From Candidatus Magasanikiibacteriota bacterium (lineage in GTDB: Bacteria; Patescibacteriota; Patescibacteriia; Magasanikbacterales; 2-02-FULL-50-9b), in NCBI GenBank assembly GCA_943355025.1, contig CALRDW010000002.1, positions 7,252 through 71,251 of the forward strand: a DNA stretch of 64,000 nucleotides, written 5' to 3'. A program made the translations under genes and the position numbers. Positions 48 through 30,992 of the stretch are shown here, piece after piece; the first letter of the stretch is position 1; each line of letters starts with the position of its first letter. The notes beneath the pieces were generated by a model. It was not told the DNA's origin. It saw nothing but the letters and a program-made list of their open reading frames with translations, and did not search any database.

Positions 48-884
48 TTGGAGATGCGAGGGTTTTTGGAGACTCAGGGCGGAAGAAGGGGAATAGCGGA
101 CGAGCAGGGAAATTTTTATCCAGTGCCTTCGGTCGGCAGTGTCATCGGACGCATCAAAGAAAAAGCAGCGATAATTCAGGAAAAGCGTGCGCAAGGGTTT
201 GAGCGATTTTTACTCGTGCCGTTTGCGTGTAGTCCGAACAAATTCGTTGATGCATACAATGAATATGTAGAGGAACATCCAGATGATTTATTTCAGAGGA
301 ATGGCAAGCCTGTTTCATTGGGGCGAGGAACCGGTGATCCAGCAATGATGCAATCCACTATATTTGGATCGCCGGTCCGCGAGTCACATTATTTTCCAAC
401 GAATTATGATTTTGCGGAAGAGGGTGAACTGCCTACAAAAGAAGAGGTGCTTGCAAAAAAGCAGGGGTCATCAAACAGTTTGTCATTTCCTGGATTTCAG
501 ATGTTATTTCTAGAAAATGATTTAGAAATGGAAGAAAAGTACATGCCGGACATTCCGGACGGTGGCCGTTCTCGGATCAAAAAGGGTAAATCACCGGAAG
601 AATATATGCAACTGCTCGCCGGGTCTCAGCAGTATGCTCACGAGCGCGGACTGACGATTGAGGAATATTTAACGCTTGCGCTTAATGAGCTGGTTTATGG
701 GAGAAAAATCTTAGATGGTGATATAGGGGGTCATGCGTGCATGCTGTTGGGATCATTTTTTTTGAGCATTGATTGCGTTCCATATATTTCGAGCGATCGC
801 ACTGGCGTTGTTTTTATAGGCAGTAGAGTTTCGAATACGCTTATGAGCGAGGATGACGGAATTCGTACGGTGGTTCAACTCTAG
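48..884 (+). CDS. hypothetical protein; member of a two-copy paralog family (second copy 29790..30992)
   Basis: 278-aa ORF. Three collinear similarity blocks with the 29754..30992 product: FERFLLVPFACS~FTRLLIVPFGTS; KGKSPEEYMQLL..ERGLTIEEYLTLAL~AGKSPNDYLELL..ELGLTPEDWLTLFA; GSFFLSIDCVPY~GSYFPDSDDVP. No recognisable catalytic motif. In-frame stop at 18..20, so the start is at TTG 42 or ATG 48. Confidence 0.5.
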   Translation: MEMRGFLETQGGRRGIADEQGNFYPVPSVGSVIGRIKEKAAIIQEKRAQGFERFLLVPFACSPNKFVDAYNEYVEEHPDDLFQRNGKPVSLGRGTGDPAMMQSTIFGSPVRESHYFPTNYDFAEEGELPTKEEVLAKKQGSSNSLSFPGFQMLFLENDLEMEEKYMPDIPDGGRSRIKKGKSPEEYMQLLAGSQQYAHERGLTIEEYLTLALNELVYGRKILDGDIGGHACMLLGSFFLSIDCVPYISSDRTGVVFIGSRVSNTLMSEDDGIRTVVQL

Positions 885-921: not shown

Positions 922-2421
922 TTGGGCTCACCACACACGGAGGTTTCGGTGACTGAGAACAGTAAAAAAACGAAGAAAGTTAGGCTGCGGGATTTTTTGC
1001 CATGGCAGGATCCCGATGTCTGTTTGCGGATTGTGCGCTCACCGCGGATGTTGGAGCGTGATGGGGCTGTGTTGCCGCTCGCGCTGCGACCTGTGCTCGA
1101 CCACCTGTATACGCATGTAAGTGCGATTCAACGCGCTCGTATCCCGCTTGAGGACGTTGGTGAGCATCGACGGCAACAAGTGCTCTCTGTGCTGAGCAAG
1201 GTCGCGGGTCGCCCGATTGTGGCGGAGGATTTGCAGGCGTCTATTGAGCAGATCATGGAAGTTGAGAACACTCTTGTGCGCGAATTCGTTTTGGGGCAAT
1301 TTGAGCATCAATACACGCCAGACGGGAAGTTGCATTTGTCAGATCCGCTCGGCCTTGCGCTCATCGCGTTTTATCCGGATTGGGAATTTCGTGGGGACAC
1401 GGTGCACCAGGTCAATCAGGATCAGCGCATCATGAGCATTCGTTCATATCGCGCGCTGTTTCGTTTGATTACCGGCGCATGGCTTCTCGGGCTGCAGCAG
1501 GAAGTTGAGCTCGCGAATACCCGGATCGAGATAATCACAAGTTATTTTGAAAGCGAATTGTTCGAAACACCTAACCACATCAACACCGACTGGGTGAGTG
1601 GCAAGAATCGCGAGATCCCTACAATGTATGTGCGAACAGATCCGGATCGCGGCTTTGCGTTTATGCAGCTCGTTTCCGCAGAGGAACTTCGACTCTTGCC
1701 AAAGGGCGCGGTTATCTCAAAAGTGTCTGCGATGTCGCGATTTGTGCCAGTTGCAAACGGAAATGCTGTTGCGTACATTCCGAATCTAAATTTATCGCGC
1801 CCAAAAGGCGTTGTACCTCAGATTCGCAAACATTTGTTGGGGCGCGCGATTAATGATGGCGTTGGTGTTCGCATTCTCGTGTTTTCACGCGCGGAGTATG
1901 AACGCTTGCAGCCAAAATTTAAGCGCGTTATCTACGACCATGGGATCGCGGAAACAGTTGATGGTGTGCTTCTTGCAAACGTGCGGCCCAATTTGACGAG
2001 TGTGGCGAGCGCGGGTGTTCATTGGCAGGGAAACGTCACAATTGGCAACGATACCGCCGAGGCGCAAATTGTTTCGTTTGAAACCGATTGGAATCGAACG
2101 AAATCGCTTCTTCCTGAAACCGAGGTGTGGTATAAATCGAAGCAATGGTTGTTGCAAGCGAAGGATGATCCGGACGTAATAAATCCATTGCCACCGCTCA
2201 TTCAACTCGTGTTTCCGCCAACGCTGCACCCCGAATGGACGCAGTGGGCCCATATCGTAGATGTGCTCTGTTATCGACTTGATCGCGCAGCGAGTAAACA
2301 TTTCCCCGGGCATTTTGTTGAACGTGGTGCGTGGATTAATCGTGTTCGCAGCGTTCTCATGCGCCGGCACCATGAATGGTCACTGGACGTTAAAGCGAAA
2401 GATTTGCTTCCTAAGAAGTAG
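922..2421 (+). CDS. hypothetical protein (499 aa) in GC-rich island 1
   Basis: Long uninterrupted ORF. Track start is TTG 922; a more likely start is GTG 949, which lies 5 nt after a GGAGG Shine-Dalgarno at 939..943. GC clearly above the window average. No motif I can assign. Confidence 0.5.
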   Translation: MGSPHTEVSVTENSKKTKKVRLRDFLPWQDPDVCLRIVRSPRMLERDGAVLPLALRPVLDHLYTHVSAIQRARIPLEDVGEHRRQQVLSVLSKVAGRPIVAEDLQASIEQIMEVENTLVREFVLGQFEHQYTPDGKLHLSDPLGLALIAFYPDWEFRGDTVHQVNQDQRIMSIRSYRALFRLITGAWLLGLQQEVELANTRIEIITSYFESELFETPNHINTDWVSGKNREIPTMYVRTDPDRGFAFMQLVSAEELRLLPKGAVISKVSAMSRFVPVANGNAVAYIPNLNLSRPKGVVPQIRKHLLGRAINDGVGVRILVFSRAEYERLQPKFKRVIYDHGIAETVDGVLLANVRPNLTSVASAGVHWQGNVTIGNDTAEAQIVSFETDWNRTKSLLPETEVWYKSKQWLLQAKDDPDVINPLPPLIQLVFPPTLHPEWTQWAHIVDVLCYRLDRAASKHFPGHFVERGAWINRVRSVLMRRHHEWSLDVKAKDLLPKK

Positions 2422-2427
2422 GAGGTG

Positions 2428-2458
2428 GCGCGTTTCTTAACCGAAGCGCGTTTTTTTA
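2428..2458 (+). terminator. rho-independent terminator after ORF 922..2421
   Basis: Stem cgcgtttc (2429..2436) / gaagcgcg (2443..2450): 8 bp including one G-U pair. Loop ttaacc. Followed by a T7 run at 2451..2457, directly after the stop codon. Confidence 0.5.
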
Positions 2459-2647
2459 TTTTCAACAGGATTCGGAGGTTTGCGAGCAATACAAAAACAG
2501 CGATTCAACAGAGGCCCAAAGAAAATAAAGTTGCCTCTCAGGGGGAGATGAACACGAGCCCCCGTCGAGACAACTTTATTTTCTTTGGGTATACGTTCAT
2601 TCGGGTGTTATACTGCTCCCATGCTTCCTAATCCTTTTGAAAAACTA
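2451..2647 (+). repeat. copy 1 of a ~195-bp direct repeat containing a nested covarying hairpin, an extended -10 box and an MLPNPF start codon
   Basis: Aligns base-for-base at ~80% identity with 29622..29818. Outer palindrome arms are cccaaagaaaataaagttg (2515..2533) and caactttattttctttggg (2571..2589). Inner stem is ggggg (2541..2545) / ccccc (2559..2563) around the loop agatgaacacgag. Downstream lie TGTTATACT (2606..2614) and an ATG at 2621 that opens a truncated MLPNPFEKLL... ORF ending at 2744..2746. Confidence 0.7.
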
Positions 2648-2650
2648 TTG

Positions 2651-2681
2651 CCGCAGAGCATATTGCGGCATTTTTGTTTTT
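2651..2681 (+). terminator. terminator-like hairpin plus T-run inside the repeat-derived short ORF, upstream of the epimerase gene
   Basis: Stem ccgca (2651..2655) / tgcgg (2664..2668) with loop gagcatat, followed by catttttgttttt. Only a 5-bp stem, so a weak intrinsic terminator or attenuator. Confidence 0.35.
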
Positions 2682-2705
2682 GTATTACACTCCAATCAAC
2701 GAATT

Positions 2706-3641
2706 ATGTCAGAGACTGCACCAAAAACGATACTCCTTACCGGGAGTAGTGGAACCATAGGAACTCGGCTCGCAGAGCGCTTAATTGAGCGTGGATTCGA
2801 TTGTATCGCCGCCGATATCGTGCCGAATAGATGGAGTCGAATTGTAAATAAAAAAACAATTCACGTTGATCTGCGTGATGCGCGGGCGACGTTGAAAAAA
2901 TTACCGCGGGCTGTTGATTTGATCATGCACCTCGCCTCACATGCTCGTGTTTATAATTTGATACAAGAGCCGCGCTTGGCATTTGAAAATGTTCAAACCA
3001 CGGGGAATATTTTGGAGTATGCGCGCGAGCGCTCAATTTCACGGCTTATGTTTGCGTCATCGCGAGAGGTGTACGGAACGTTGGACAAAAAACAGACGCA
3101 CCACGGGGAAACAGATGTGAATATAGAACGCTGTGAAAATCCGTATGCTGCATCGAAAATTGCAGGCGAGGCGTTTATGCATGCGTATAAGCGGTGCTTT
3201 GGACTACGACCCGTGCTGTTTCGTTTCTCAAATGTTTATGGGAGATATGACATTAGCGACCGCATCATTCCCACATTTATTAAACTCATGCGCAGGAATA
3301 AAGACGTTACGATTTTTGGACGCAATAAACAGATGGATTTTACGTATATTGACGACGTAGTTGACGGAGTTATCGATTCACTTTCACACTTTTCTGTGAT
3401 TGAAGGTAAAAGTATTAATCTTGCAACGGGATCGGGAACCTCACTTCATGAACTTGCGGGCCTCATTCGGCGGGAGACTAACGCAACCTCAAAAATTATT
3501 ATGAAGCCGCATCGTATTGGCGAGGTAATTGCACACGTCGCTGATATCAGCGCAGCAAAGAAATTACTTCGGTTTAAATCAAAAACCTCGATTGAAGATG
3601 GTATTAAAAAAACAGTAGCCTGGTATTTAGAAAATACGTAA
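2706..3641 (+). CDS. NAD-dependent epimerase/dehydratase (extended SDR family, UDP-glucose 4-epimerase-like)
   Basis: N-terminal Rossmann motif ILLTGSSGTIGTRLAERLIERG. Catalytic YxxxK as YAASK. The track ORF starts at 2637 inside the repeat element. ATG 2706 (MSETAPK) gives a standard-length N-terminus. Confidence 0.8.
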   Translation: MSETAPKTILLTGSSGTIGTRLAERLIERGFDCIAADIVPNRWSRIVNKKTIHVDLRDARATLKKLPRAVDLIMHLASHARVYNLIQEPRLAFENVQTTGNILEYARERSISRLMFASSREVYGTLDKKQTHHGETDVNIERCENPYAASKIAGEAFMHAYKRCFGLRPVLFRFSNVYGRYDISDRIIPTFIKLMRRNKDVTIFGRNKQMDFTYIDDVVDGVIDSLSHFSVIEGKSINLATGSGTSLHELAGLIRRETNATSKIIMKPHRIGEVIAHVADISAAKKLLRFKSKTSIEDGIKKTVAWYLENT

Positions 3642-3645
3642 TTGT

Positions 3646-4569
3646 ATGACAAAAGTATCCATAGTAATTCCCGTTTATAATGAAGAGGCGTGTATTGTTG
3701 AAACACACAAACGCTTGGTTGCTTCTTGTGGTAACGATCCGAGCGCTGTTGAGTTAATATACGTAAACGATGGAAGTAGAGACCGAACGCAAAAAATATT
3801 GAGAGATATTGCGCAAACAAATCCTTGCGTAAAAGTCATTTCTTTTTCTCGAAATTTTGGACATCAAACCGCTGTATCTGCAGGGATTTCATATGCAACT
3901 GGCGCGGCTGTTGTTGTAATTGATGGCGATCTGCAAGATCCACCAGAGATTATTGAAAAACTTGTTGCGAAATGGCGAGAAGGATTTGATGTTGTGTATG
4001 CTGTTCGTGAATCACGAAAGGAAAATATCGTGCTTCGGTTTATGTATTCGCTATTTTACCGCATCATGGCGAGGCTCTCATACGTTGCCATTCCTCTCGA
4101 CAGCGGTGATTTTGCACTCATGGACCGCAAGGTTGTTGATGTTCTTAAAAAAATGCCAGAGCACAATCGGTTTGTGCGCGGTCTCCGTTCGTGGATTGGA
4201 TTTAAACAGATCGGTGTTGCGTATGCGCGCGACGCACGAGTGCTTGGTGAATCAAAATATTCAATAATGAAATTATTTAAGCTCGCATATGATGGAATTA
4301 TTTCATTCTCCTTCGTACCGCTCAAAATGGTTTCTGTCGCGGGGTTTGTAATCTCGTCTGTTGCTTTTCTGTCGATTTTTATCGTTTTATTTTTTCGGAT
4401 ATTTACCGAGTATTCAATTCCTGGTTTTGCATCGACCGCAACAATCGTTTTGTTTTTAGGCGGTGTTCAATTACTGTCGCTTGGTATGATCGGCGAGTAT
4501 GTATCACGAATTTTCGATGAGGTAAAAGGGCGGCCGCTCTTTGTTGTCGACGAGCTCATTAATTTTTAG
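3646..4569 (+). CDS. family 2 glycosyltransferase, polyprenyl-phosphate sugar synthase type (DPM1/ArnC/GtrB-like)
   Basis: IVIPVYNEE start. DGSRD and the DxD-containing VVIDGDLQDP motif. C-terminal pair of TM helices typical of Und-P/Dol-P glycosyltransferases. Confidence 0.85.
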   Translation: MTKVSIVIPVYNEEACIVETHKRLVASCGNDPSAVELIYVNDGSRDRTQKILRDIAQTNPCVKVISFSRNFGHQTAVSAGISYATGAAVVVIDGDLQDPPEIIEKLVAKWREGFDVVYAVRESRKENIVLRFMYSLFYRIMARLSYVAIPLDSGDFALMDRKVVDVLKKMPEHNRFVRGLRSWIGFKQIGVAYARDARVLGESKYSIMKLFKLAYDGIISFSFVPLKMVSVAGFVISSVAFLSIFIVLFFRIFTEYSIPGFASTATIVLFLGGVQLLSLGMIGEYVSRIFDEVKGRPLFVVDELINF

Positions 4570-29562: not shown

Positions 29563-29621
29563 AAGCTCAGGCGTAGAAGTTTGATAGCGTGCAATGGTAA
29601 CCTGATTGGTTGCTCTGCACG

Positions 29622-29818
29622 TTTTTTATTTTCAACAGAATTCGGAAGTTTATGAGTAGTTCAATACAGTGATTCAACATGCACCCAAAGAATTAAATAT
29701 TACTTCTCAGGGAGAGATGAACATGAGCTCCCGTCGAAGTAATATTTAATTCTTTGGGGATACGTTCATTCAGGTGTTATACTACTCCCATGCTTCCCAA
29801 TCCTTTTCAAAAACCTCT
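29622..29818 (+). repeat. copy 2 of the ~195-bp direct repeat / structured leader
   Basis: Arms cccaaagaattaaatattacttc (29684..29706) and gaagtaatatttaattctttggg (29736..29758) are perfect reverse complements. Inner stem gggag (29710..29714) / ctccc (29728..29732) surrounds the loop agatgaacatgag. TGTTATACT lies at 29775..29783 and the ATG at 29790. Confidence 0.7.
29775..29792 (+). promoter_or_regulatory. extended -10 promoter (TGnTATACT) positioned for a leaderless transcript starting at ATG 29790
   Basis: TG-T-TATACT, then 6 nt, then ATG. No Shine-Dalgarno is present. An identical arrangement is found at 2606..2623. Confidence 0.4.
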
Positions 29819-30992
29819 CACAGAGTTTAAAGACACAGATCCTCTTAAGAACAGAGAGATTGTTAGAGAACTTCTCGGACCAGAGGGAGTACATAAATAT
29901 AGAAAGATATTAGGAGACACTTCAGACCCTACTCCAAAGCGAGACAAAGAACTCTCTAAAGAAGATCTCCTTGCCATGGCGGCAGAAGCCCACTCTAAAA
30001 TAGATACACTGTCCAGAGACTCAGTAAAGCCAATCCTCGAGCGCCTCATAGAGCGCCAATACACTTCTCAGATCCAATCTCTGCAAGAGATTGGATTCCT
30101 AGAACCTCTCGTACCACAAAAAAAGAAAGGCTTTACCATTTTCAAATCAAAAGAACCAGAAGAAACTACACCAGAGAAACTAGGGGCTACAGACATCCTC
30201 GGTACCTTCCGAGAAGTTCCAACCGAAGAAGCCATCAAAAATCACTTCCTCTCCATTCCTAACATCAAACAAAAGATAGATCAAGGATTCACCCGACTTC
30301 TCATCGTTCCATTCGGAACTTCTCTCGACACCCTCCGCTCTAAAACAGGAGAGCTTATCAAGAAGCATAAGAAAGAAAACAAACTTCTCGCAGAAGATGG
30401 AACAGAATTAGAACTCGACACTACAACACCACTCTGGGCATGGGACGGCTATAACAACGCAGACAAGAGCGGGAAACTCGTCTATTACCCAGAGCAATTC
30501 AATAAAGAAAATCACAACGGTACAACTAAAACAGAACTCCTTTCGTCCACCCCGTCAAACCAAGCAAACTCTTCCACACCAAACACCAATCCATTCCCCG
30601 GCTACCATATTCTTCTTATTCAGGAAGACACACAGATTCCACGAGAAGGAAAGGGAACAGCAAAAGCAGGGAGAGATAAAATAGAAGCAGGTAAGTCTCC
30701 AAACGACTATTTAGAACTTCTAAGAACTGATCCTAACTACTCAAAAGAACTCGGTCTCACTCCAGAAGATTGGCTCACTCTCTTTGCAACGAATCTTAAT
30801 CAGAAGAACAAAGTTATTAATGACTGGCAGTCAAATAAAGACAGTATTAATTATCTAGTCGGTAGTTATTTTCCAGATTCTGACGACGTCCCGAACGCGT
30901 GCTGGGACCGTGGCGCTCGGCGGGCGCACTTGTACGGGGGCGAGCCGACGAACGCGTACGAGCATTTTGGCGTTGCTGGCGCGGTGGGGTGA
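29790..30992 (+). CDS. hypothetical protein; second member of the paralog family (see 48..884)
   Basis: Homology blocks listed under 48..884. The ATG at 29790 (MLPNPFQKP) is the one conserved in both repeat copies; track start 29754 lies inside the structured element. The last ~130 nt (DDVPNACWDRGARRAHLYGGEPTNAYEHFGVAGAVG) are sharply GC-rich, unlike the rest of the gene. Confidence 0.5.
   Translation: MLPNPFQKPLTEFKDTDPLKNREIVRELLGPEGVHKYRKILGDTSDPTPKRDKELSKEDLLAMAAEAHSKIDTLSRDSVKPILERLIERQYTSQIQSLQEIGFLEPLVPQKKKGFTIFKSKEPEETTPEKLGATDILGTFREVPTEEAIKNHFLSIPNIKQKIDQGFTRLLIVPFGTSLDTLRSKTGELIKKHKKENKLLAEDGTELELDTTTPLWAWDGYNNADKSGKLVYYPEQFNKENHNGTTKTELLSSTPSNQANSSTPNTNPFPGYHILLIQEDTQIPREGKGTAKAGRDKIEAGKSPNDYLELLRTDPNYSKELGLTPEDWLTLFATNLNQKNKVINDWQSNKDSINYLVGSYFPDSDDVPNACWDRGARRAHLYGGEPTNAYEHFGVAGAVG

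Follow-up and report, generated by a model that had tools for sequence, protein, structure and literature searches.

A probable truncated 5' module from a multi-copy gene family ahead of a glycan operon in a Magasanikbacterales bacterium

In the 64-kb window (the whole stretch of DNA analysed, 64,000 nucleotides), a glycan operon is preceded by a solo, truncated copy of the 5' module of the MLPNPF gene family. This copy (copy 1) lies at 2452..2657 of the forward strand, as delimited by alignment and an nhmmer match with an E-value of 2e-57. Because the remnant, about 205 bases of the family front end, is closed off by a terminator-like hairpin overlapping the operon promoter, its sequence marks it as what is left of a gene, and not as a leader-peptide or riboswitch control device. 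The explanation we regard as probable is that copy 1 is the orphaned module of a fast-evolving multi-copy family, generated by local duplication or deletion, and that the operon relies mainly on its own promoter.

The solo module and the MLPNPF family

Copy 1 consists of a left arm, a central palindrome, a promoter-like element and the first 12 codons of a family gene. A profile search found only one other copy of the module in the window, copy 2 (29622..29815, forward strand), which is intact and stands ahead of its gene. Positions 2452-2646 and 29622-29815 are approximately 82% identical (84% for 2452-2494 versus 29622-29664, 81% for 2494-2645 versus 29663-29814; blastn: 82% across 194-195 nt, E 6e-43), and the right boxes share 93% identity. 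The family ATG is retained at 2621, and codons 1-6 are common to copy 1 and the gene at 29790-30992, as the initial annotation had noted, but the homology reaches further than these six codons. With copy 2 it ends at 2646 (codon 8), and with an E-type paralog, gene B (beginning MLPNPFEKPLPQM), it continues through codon 12, TTGCCGCAGA, to about 2657. At this boundary the window reads GAAAAACTATTGCCGCAGAGC and gene B reads GAAAAACCGTTGCCGCAGATG, after which the match stops. The relic codons 1-12 (MLPNPFEKLLPQ) thus occupy 2621..2656 of the forward strand, and past ~2657 no homology was found to any sampled family gene or its downstream region. Collinear homology to the upstream region and first codons, with an abrupt end, is what a truncated paralog displays.

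Copy 1 has no visible decay: its stem is perfectly paired, and both the extended -10 element TGTTATACT and the ATG are intact, at a divergence of at least 18% from each sampled copy. This intactness could mean that the module is maintained for a function, or that it has been refreshed by gene conversion.

The copy 2 gene (29790..30992, forward strand; recognized by its homologs and an AF2 model with a pLDDT of 83.6) encodes a 400-aa protein starting with MLPNPFQKPL. It had previously been described as a 412-aa gene; the MLPNPF start is correct, but the longer ORF (29754-30992) begins at an upstream in-frame TTG. The protein has 27 homologs, and of the 26 that were aligned 22 begin with MLPNPF; the family members are ~370-400 aa long, lacking a signal peptide, a lipobox and repeats in the coding sequence. 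Scans of genome and metagenome contig collections with the pattern TATACT-N6-RTGCTNCCNAAYCCNTTY returned only chance matches (L006-L008), which suggests that the family is limited to a handful of ENA/NCBI/Logan assemblies; for three proteins (P0001, P0011 and P0013) exact look-up gave no record.

In related assemblies, nine distinct sampled family genes are preceded by the ~195-nt module, whose orientation never varies, and every sampled family gene with its own upstream region carries it. In six of nine comparisons the first 45 codons are 86-96% identical at the nucleotide level, synonymous sites included, even where the remaining coding sequence is only 48-54% identical. One and the same family gene was seen with two different upstream contexts, two half modules were found among the sampled loci, two contigs end inside modules, and fragments of gene 3' ends are located downstream of family genes. 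Judged from these alignments, the family 5' regions are recombination-prone, and gene conversion demonstrably homogenises the 5' ends.

Family members also lie upstream of copy 1. The window starts inside gene B, whose 3' part was located by tblastn at 48..884 of the forward strand (26% identity to the 400-aa protein, E 3e-19); it is full-length in a locus of the same strain (L013, 1226-2365), where it has no module of its own and its ATG is placed 10 nt past the stop codon of another family member, gene A. In this strain, genes A and B are situated 1.7-3.8 kb upstream of copy 1. The family array is separated from the solo module by an ORFan gene (922..2421, forward strand; 499 aa from a TTG, called as 457 aa) without any match in Pfam, PADLOC, PHROG or NCBIfam, and whose sole match among 5.8 billion proteins is itself. 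It is followed by an intrinsic-terminator-like hairpin with a T-run (2427..2458, forward strand; terminator scan, 10 pairs, 5 G-C). This T-run coincides with the left edge of the module, where the homology with copy 2 begins; the edge is sharp at TTTTCAAC in several distinct contexts, and in other copies the T-run is preceded by unrelated hairpins.

The module is composed of a left box, a stem of 21-25 bp and the extended -10 element, located 6 nt before the ATG. In copy 1 the left arm, or left box (2459..2513, forward strand), is an imperfect inverted repeat of 2591-2645, the whole module matching its own reverse complement at 72% across 185 nt, and the left arm gives a minus-strand profile match of E 1e-13 (1e-11 to 1e-17 across modules). 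The central palindrome (2514..2590) pairs 2514-2533 with 2571-2590, and contains inner helices (2535-2537/2567-2569 and 2541-2545/2559-2563) and a 13-nt loop; it folds at -43.4 kcal/mol (z -8.1) and is equally stable on the minus strand. Stem sequence differs among copies, yet the stems of eight copies are nearly all Watson-Crick over their 21-25 bp, and among five alleles 97 positions changed on both sides, with Watson-Crick pairing kept at 90 of them. The apex helices are 100% paired and the apex is conserved in most copies; elsewhere it is replaced and expanded (L004), deleted (L017) or broken (L009, L001). In the outer arms 80% of cells are paired, as compared with 33-46% in slid controls. 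Pairing of the left end with codons 1-8 was considered as a selected RNA structure and rejected, as variation in the main outer helix mostly breaks pairs (13/28) and does not compensate them. By reading of the printed copies, the left box holds no conserved TAnnnT promoter that could transcribe the hairpin.

The promoter-like element of copy 1 (2585..2614, forward strand, by sequence reading) comprises a -35-like TTGGGT, itself part of the stem's 3' end, and, after a spacer of 18 nt, TGTTATACT at 2606-2614. Of 11 modules, 9 have TGnTATACT exactly 6 nt ahead of the start codon, and a variant -10, TGCTATACT, occurs in three (L004, L010 and L013 gene A). A simple promoter scan leaves the putative promoter unflagged because its -35 is weak. 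The position of the -10 relative to the ATG suggests that the mRNA would be leaderless, with transcription starting at the A of the ATG (2621 in copy 1). A -10 spaced 6-8 nt from the start codon and no Shine-Dalgarno sequence, the signature of leaderless starts, were both found here. The genome as a whole is almost without Shine-Dalgarno sequences: such motifs were flagged upstream of 6 of 41 genes, only two at the typical distance, and some genes carry TATAAT ~7 nt ahead of the ATG. Nothing usable was found in the literature on leaderless translation in Patescibacteria.

The junction with the epimerase operon

The first operon gene encodes an NAD-dependent epimerase/dehydratase (2706..3641, forward strand; Pfam PF01370, 2.4e-43), and the second a GT2 protein (3646-4569; Pfam GT2, 3.6e-36); the previously given epimerase ATG at 2706 is correct. 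The same gene order is present in L013, from the same strain. The closest named relatives of the epimerase, at ~50% identity, come from Patescibacteria/Minisyncoccia and some archaeal MAGs. A single orthologous locus from another species, L016 (epimerase 77% identical), was available, the other loci being from the same strain, and its upstream region contains no family module. The only conserved block in the two upstream regions, which reads TTGCACCATTCTGTAAATTGTATTACACTC in L016, is TTGCnnCATT...TTGTATTACACTC, at 2663-2692 of the window; the match is exact over 13 nt, with a probability of arising by chance that we estimate at ~1e-3. From this comparison we infer that the operon has its own promoter at 2663..2691 of the forward strand, with TTGCGG (2663-2668), a 17-nt spacer and TACACT (2686-2691).

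Directly on this putative promoter lies an intrinsic-terminator-like hairpin (2649..2681, forward strand; terminator scan and fold), in agreement with the hairpin and T-run reported earlier at 2651..2681. Its G+C-rich stem (TGCCGCA/TGCGGCA, 2649-2655 with 2664-2670; 7-8 bp, 5 G-C, loop of 6-8) is followed immediately on the 3' side by T5GT5 (2671-2681), the sequence arrangement of an intrinsic terminator. The 5' arm corresponds to family codons 10-12 and the 3' arm to the epimerase -35 region, and on this evidence the stem is a product of the junction. Five terminator-like sites were observed in 2350-2800 against 0.8 expected, and the same simple scan showed no enrichment genome-wide. MFE and centroid structures of 2615-2710 hold only the terminator hairpin, and no antiterminator was found there. 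A deletion within a family gene, running from codon 13 to its 3' terminator, was also considered but found no support: nothing downstream of the sampled family genes is homologous to the terminator region (2641-2710).

From the relic ATG, a 42-codon ORF extends over 2621..2749 of the forward strand, with its stop at 2747-2749, and not over 41 codons to 2744..2746 as first annotated; it does read across the epimerase ATG, as originally stated. Only residues 1-12 of its peptide (MLPNPFEKLLPQSILRHFCFCITLQSTNYVRDCTKNDTPYRE) are homologous to anything. It has neither runs of regulatory codons nor the character of a conserved leader peptide, and it is absent at L016. Most likely this ORF is not a gene, but the relic start read through the terminator, the promoter and the start of the epimerase gene.

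These results bear on the initial proposals that copy 1 is a relic duplicate of a paralog 5' end which drives the glycan locus, and that the locus and the paralog share a regulatory module. The truncated duplicate is borne out, but the driving role lacks support, because a hairpin with a T-tract intervenes and a separate promoter-like block of the epimerase is conserved in L016. The module is likewise shared at the level of sequence, but not beyond it.

Origin of the arrangement and alternative explanations

The favoured scenario starts from the intact family module, in which a long palindromic hairpin abuts the -35 and the extended -10 TGTTATACT is so placed that transcription should begin with the A of the start codon. 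From the tandem array (gene A, gene B, the ORFan and the relic), local duplication or deletion probably left only the module with 12 codons, which now ends ~6 nt short of the putative epimerase promoter TTGCGG-17-TACACT. Here TGCCGCA, from family codons 10-12, can pair with TGCGGCA in the epimerase -35 region, and the T-rich spacer of this promoter provides the U-tract. Given this hairpin and U-tract, transcripts from the relic promoter should mostly end at ~2681 as an RNA of ~60 nt. No terminator is known to be 100% efficient, and part of the transcription may therefore continue into the operon.

Such read-through is central to a possible, if doubtful, alternative, in which transcription does start from the relic promoter and meets, in the hairpin, a leaky terminator or roadblock, so that read-through or interference couples the glycan operon to family-promoter control. 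Copy 1 has indeed kept its perfect stem, extended -10, ATG and a right box 93% identical to that of copy 2, and an RNA polymerase arriving from 2621 would occupy the epimerase promoter, since the terminator lies exactly on its -35 and spacer; a closely coupled ribosome could suppress termination, because the relic ORF crosses the hairpin. On the other hand, the L016 epimerase would be expressed without any such module, the T-tract is richer in the window (TTTTTGTTTTTG) than in L016 (TTCTGTAAATTG), which points to better termination and not to read-through, and the intactness is explicable by gene conversion of family 5' ends. We also consider it unlikely that the family module is a new kind of DNA-level (cruciform or hairpin) element for control or recombination, governing the expression or diversification of this rapidly evolving family, and that its intact solo copy has been recruited to bring surface-glycan synthesis under that control. 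Slightly less likely again is a mobile palindromic repeat, i.e. a ~195-bp MITE/ERIC-like unit with TIRs and an outward promoter that landed downstream of the ORFan terminator, ahead of the epimerase promoter. The imperfect palindromy of the whole unit, with its paired outer arms and minus-strand matches, the sharp left edge and the contig breaks at the module would fit such an element, and TIR-like ends are present. However, copy 1 homology extends four family codons past the right end of the palindrome, 9 of the 10 copies with a 3' half are actual starts of family genes, no target-site duplication was seen on reading the sequence, and there are just two copies in 64 kb and none elsewhere in either public-collection scan. 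Inversion of the promoter found no support either: the sampled modules have a single orientation in 12 loci plus the window, and no recombinase Pfam was detected among the called neighbours.

The ~60-nt RNA itself (2621-2681) might be the product of a small RNA gene, a decoy for a factor binding the 5' ends of family mRNAs. A promoter-like element, 60 nt and a canonical terminator do follow one another, the first 25 nt are those with which every family mRNA would begin, and the conservation of these ends at the nucleotide level, including synonymous sites, suggests recognition of the family RNA or DNA. We nevertheless judge this very unlikely: no second example and no equivalent at L016 were found, the fold z-score is only -1.97, Rfam gives no match, and the reading is purely inferential. 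Least plausible of all, and hardly to be expected, is the attenuator suggested in the initial annotation, in which the choice between termination at 2681 and read-through would depend on whether the 42-aa ORF is translated, or on a ligand bound by the big hairpin. The ORF does overlap a terminator upstream of an operon, and a very stable structured element is nearby. However, no alternative antiterminator pairing was found in the folds, the peptide past codon 12 is unconserved and devoid of regulatory codon runs, and transcription probably starts downstream of the big hairpin, which folds just as stably on the minus strand. Other copies have the apex of this hairpin expanded, deleted or broken, unlike what an aptamer for a ligand would show. 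Rfam yielded no match in the whole window at the gathering threshold, and at E up to 10 the region 2380-2780 matched only sub-threshold miRNA/sRNA hairpin families (at best E 0.011-0.02 and 23-25 bits, versus gathering scores of 99-176); the module is, moreover, absent from L016.

For annotation, the preferred reading of copy 1 as an orphaned front end means that the 42-codon ORF should not count as a gene, that co-regulation of the glycan operon with the paralog family is not to be assumed, and that 2663-2691 is the probable site of the operon promoter. As a relic, copy 1 is ordinary; more unusual is the palindromic module of the family. Through it an undescribed multi-copy family comes into view, the 5' ends of which (about -170 to +135) evolve in concert and carry an unusual palindrome, with arms that are hypervariable yet perfectly paired. 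The family is therefore a candidate system in which to study how palindromes are maintained, how leaderless promoters work and how gene families turn over, in a bacterium that is uncultivated and poor in Shine-Dalgarno sequences.

Comparison with known systems

Remnants of gene 5' ends and orphan promoters arise by recombination in multigene families, e.g. those encoding the variable surface proteins of mycoplasmas. The MLPNPF paralogs resemble these in having a conserved upstream region and early coding sequence in otherwise divergent genes, and in the fragments and solo pieces scattered near family members. Unlike them, the MLPNPF protein has no signal peptide, lipobox or coding-sequence repeats, no recombinase or inversion was observed, and the upstream region contains a long palindrome.

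The junction hairpin shares with intrinsic terminators and the trp/his attenuators a G+C-rich stem of 7-8 bp, a loop of 6-8 nt, the T5GT5 tract, a downstream operon and the overlap with a short ORF. It differs from the attenuators in lacking an antiterminator, an anti-antiterminator and regulatory codons, its ORF being the relic of another gene's start and the hairpin being built from a coding-sequence fragment and a promoter -35. As for the module promoter, extended -10 promoters of leaderless mRNAs are common in Actinobacteria, Deinococcus and others. The module's putative promoter is similar in its TGnTATACT 6 nt ahead of the start, in a genome almost without Shine-Dalgarno sequences; a departure from usual leaderless translation is that one family member starts with GTG.

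Invertible promoters are known from fimS, the Bacteroides capsule loci and mpl of Mycoplasma penetrans. Here too, inverted repeats bracket a promoter ahead of a variable family (in copy 1, ahead of the glycan locus), but in all 11 sampled modules the promoter faces the gene, assemblies possibly hiding minor orientations, the stretch that the repeats enclose is a palindrome in its own right, and no recombinase gene was seen next to the loci. With ERIC and MITE elements the module has in common its size of ~190 bp, its imperfect palindromy and the compensatory changes in its stem; it is distinguished from them by being tied to the start codon of one family, by low copy number and by having no terminal duplication.

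Long DNA palindromes show centre-directed instability (hairpin or cruciform processing, e.g. by SbcCD). The module matches this pattern, as its arms stay perfectly complementary while insertion (L004), deletion (L017) and breakage (L009, L001) all fall at its centre. It differs in keeping a conserved apex in most copies and in being retained over substantial divergence, which suggests that the palindrome has a function.

Module copy upstream of the epimerase gene

An ORFan gene (922-2421; a 499-aa ORF, called as 457 aa) and the gene of an NAD-dependent epimerase (ATG at 2706; Pfam PF01370, 2.4e-43) flank the intergenic region 2422-2705, and a GT2 gene follows the epimerase gene. The initial annotation placed here a repeat carrying the start of a paralog located further downstream, and as a whole this observation was confirmed with small corrections only. 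The segment 2452-2646 (copy 1) recurs at 29622-29815 (copy 2) with ~82% identity, and the ATG at 2621 with the codons MLPNPF is common to copy 1 and the 400-aa gene at 29790-30992. The short ORF opening at 2621 is present, but it comprises 42 codons and stops at 2747-2749, one codon more than had been reported. A hairpin followed by a T-run is present: 2649-2655 pairs with 2664-2670 (five G-C pairs), and T5GT5 follows (2671-2681). Five terminator-like sites fall within 2350-2800, versus 0.8 expected. In the 64 kb of the window, a profile built from eight module copies detected copies 1 and 2 and no others.

A locus of the same strain, L013, is identical to the window across the region read (2380-2720) and contains a tandem array of family genes, inside which the window begins. 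The array order is as follows: gene A (encoding P0015 and preceded by a module), gene B, the ORFan, copy 1 and the epimerase operon. Gene B (48-884) has its ATG 10 nt past the gene A stop and is devoid of a module. The sole match of the ORFan among 5.8 billion proteins was itself, with no family match; it is strain-specific, wedged between the array and the relic.

All family genes with an upstream region of their own are preceded by the ~195-nt module, in constant orientation. Its parts are, in order, a T-run with a left box (..GTTTATAAGTAGTTCAATACAGTGATTCAAC..), then a long hairpin, then TATACGTTCATTCARGTGTTATACT, followed by 6 nt and the start codon. TGTTATACT is a putative extended -10, and a weak -35 (TTGRGT) falls within the stem's 3' end. 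As this -10 sits 6 nt before the ATG, a leaderless mRNA would be implied, which is plausible because the genome is almost without Shine-Dalgarno motifs and other genes carry TATAAT ~7 nt before the ATG. An SD-like tetramer occurs within 20 nt upstream of only 6 of the 41 window genes, at the typical SD distance in only two of these. TATAAT-like hexamers were also seen 7-15 nt before the ATG of several genes, which suggests that leaderless or very short-leader mRNAs may be frequent; examples are found upstream of 55776, 12892 and 57668.

The module left edges consist of a T-run behind a G+C-rich hairpin whose sequence is unrelated between loci (2427-2458 and 29590-29630 in the window; ~9800-9840 in L010; ~16490-16520 in L001). 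The T-run of the module thus also belongs to an intrinsic-terminator-like hairpin, a different one at each locus, and every copy begins immediately after that hairpin.

The palindrome and recombination at the module

The copy 1 hairpin (2514-2590; -43.4 kcal/mol, z -8.1) is just as stable when the minus strand is folded. In the eight copies, the main stem of 21-25 bp is nearly all Watson-Crick, while its sequence varies. Among the five distinct stem alleles, both sides change at 4-15 of 23 positions per comparison, and Watson-Crick pairing is kept in 90 of the 97 such changes summed over comparisons. The apical part (CTTCTCAGGGAGAGATAAACAGGAACTCCCGTCGAAG) is conserved, with its two small helices 100% paired. 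Despite this conservation, the apex is dispensable or unstable: in L004 (2165-2330) the loop and apex are swapped for a structured insert of ~85 nt, and in L017 (1575-1612) the whole inner hairpin is deleted, leaving a 10-bp stem and a 10-nt loop. The outer stem adjoining the -35 is retained in both. Half modules, made up of the left box, the stem's 5' arm and one half of the apical loop, occur in L009 (9722-9851) and L001 (16511-16682). Their stem alleles differ, yet they break at the identical loop position, between GAGATA and CACAATAC..., and both are joined to one 78-nt sequence that is 100% identical between the loci; in L009, a complete module and a gene come after it. A site-specific event within the loop could account for this, as could breakage at the palindrome centre.

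The outer arms (2459-2513 and 2591-2645) form an inverted repeat, the right arm of which spans the -10 as well as codons 1-8. Paired cells make up 80%, versus 33-46% in slid controls, but variation mostly breaks pairs. A DNA-level palindrome fits better than a riboswitch-like RNA, because the Watson-Crick arms are perfect, the strands are equally stable, the palindrome precedes the inferred transcription start and its centre is fragile.

The 400-aa protein family has no model in Pfam, NCBIfam, PADLOC or PHROG. Its N-terminus, MLPNPF(Q/E)KPL..DTDPLKN.EIVR.LLG, opens 22 of 27 homologs and is much better conserved than the remaining protein. The family loci come from two ENA assemblies, one NCBI MAG (GCA_943359715.1) and the window's own strain; the comparisons as a whole draw on a handful of assemblies, probably of two or three strains, plus one other species. 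The ~290-aa core domain of the 29790-30992 protein occurs widely (886 cluster representatives at 50% identity, 757 of them at E <= 1e-10); of the 10 long homologs scanned, 6 carry an AAA_5 (MoxR/McrB-type) ATPase domain N-terminal to it. This core has no Pfam model, and a Foldseek search of PDB and BFVD with its confident AF2 model (pLDDT 83.6) gave no match.

In six of nine family comparisons, the first 45 codons are 86-96% nucleotide-identical to those of copy 2's gene, with identical codons for 71-91% of identical residues, also in cases where identity over the rest of the CDS is as low as 48-54%. This synonymous conservation, seen at 29790-29925 and in the family genes of L001, L004, L010 and L011, indicates either gene conversion or a nucleic-acid-level constraint that would reach ~135 nt into the CDS. 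The gene of P0016, another family protein, has an identical downstream methyltransferase gene and two upstream contexts, an HD_4 gene in one assembly and xseB in the other (L011 9831-10001 versus L012 3311-3481). The contexts diverge inside the left arm of the module, which places a rearrangement breakpoint there. Two contigs end within modules. Finally, fragments of family CDS 3' ends, further gene debris, lie just downstream of complete family genes (L009 11451-11565, L001 11358-11435) and are 74-77% identical to 30875-30989. Taken together, the 5' conservation, P0016 contexts, contig ends and 3' fragments point to the module as a substrate of recombination and gene conversion, of which solo module pieces are an expected by-product.

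Junction with the probable epimerase promoter and readings of copy 1

Homology of copy 1 to copy 2 ends at codon 8 and extends further against gene B (window GAAAAACTATTGCCGCAGAGC, gene B GAAAAACCGTTGCCGCAGATG). The relic thus retains 12 codons (MLPNPFEKLLPQ) and ends at ~2657; family codons 10-12 therefore supply the 5' arm (TGCCGCA) of the 'terminator'. L016, the sole orthologous epimerase locus from another species (protein 77% identical), has no module upstream of the epimerase. By reading of the sequence, a ribosomal protein L28-like gene lies there instead (1780-1930, minus strand), thus synteny upstream of the operon is not conserved. The best named epimerase relatives are from Patescibacteria/Minisyncoccia (~50% identity). 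One block is common to the upstream regions of L016 and the window (TTGCACCATTCTGTAAATTGTATTACACTC versus TTGCGGCATTTTTGTTTTTGTATTACACTC, 2663-2692), and we read it as the probable promoter of the epimerase itself (-35 TTGCGG, 17-nt spacer, -10 TACACT). The hairpin 3' arm would then be the -35 region and the T-tract the spacer, which is richer in T in the window than in L016.

Based on these observations, we favour, with some reserve, the view that copy 1 is a 5' module of the family that has been orphaned and is insulated by a terminator formed at the junction, and that the operon uses its own promoter. The hairpin would have been assembled where the relic meets the native promoter, and would stop relic-promoter transcripts directly atop the operon promoter. 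The main rival, which we hold to be rather unlikely, is that an active relic promoter acts on the operon, through leaky read-through or through interference, since the terminator overlaps the operon promoter. In favour of this rival, copy 1 is intact though at least 18% diverged from all sampled copies; gene conversion could also explain this intactness.

Insertion of a mobile palindrome is disfavoured more strongly, as homology passes the palindrome into family codons 9-12 and elsewhere the unit is always the start of a family gene. Lower still we rank a ~60-nt sRNA, which is possible but unsupported. The leader-peptide or riboswitch attenuator put forward in the initial annotation failed the available tests and seems highly improbable: neither an antiterminator nor a conserved peptide nor an Rfam family was found, and the structured element varies between copies and is located before the inferred start.

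The family module resembles nothing in Rfam and is only loosely similar to ERIC/MITE palindromes, invertible promoters and unstable DNA palindromes, for each of which a defining feature was looked for and not found. Objects that combine a truncated paralog start, an orphan promoter and an intrinsic terminator are known, and copy 1 adds a new instance from a family that is itself undescribed.
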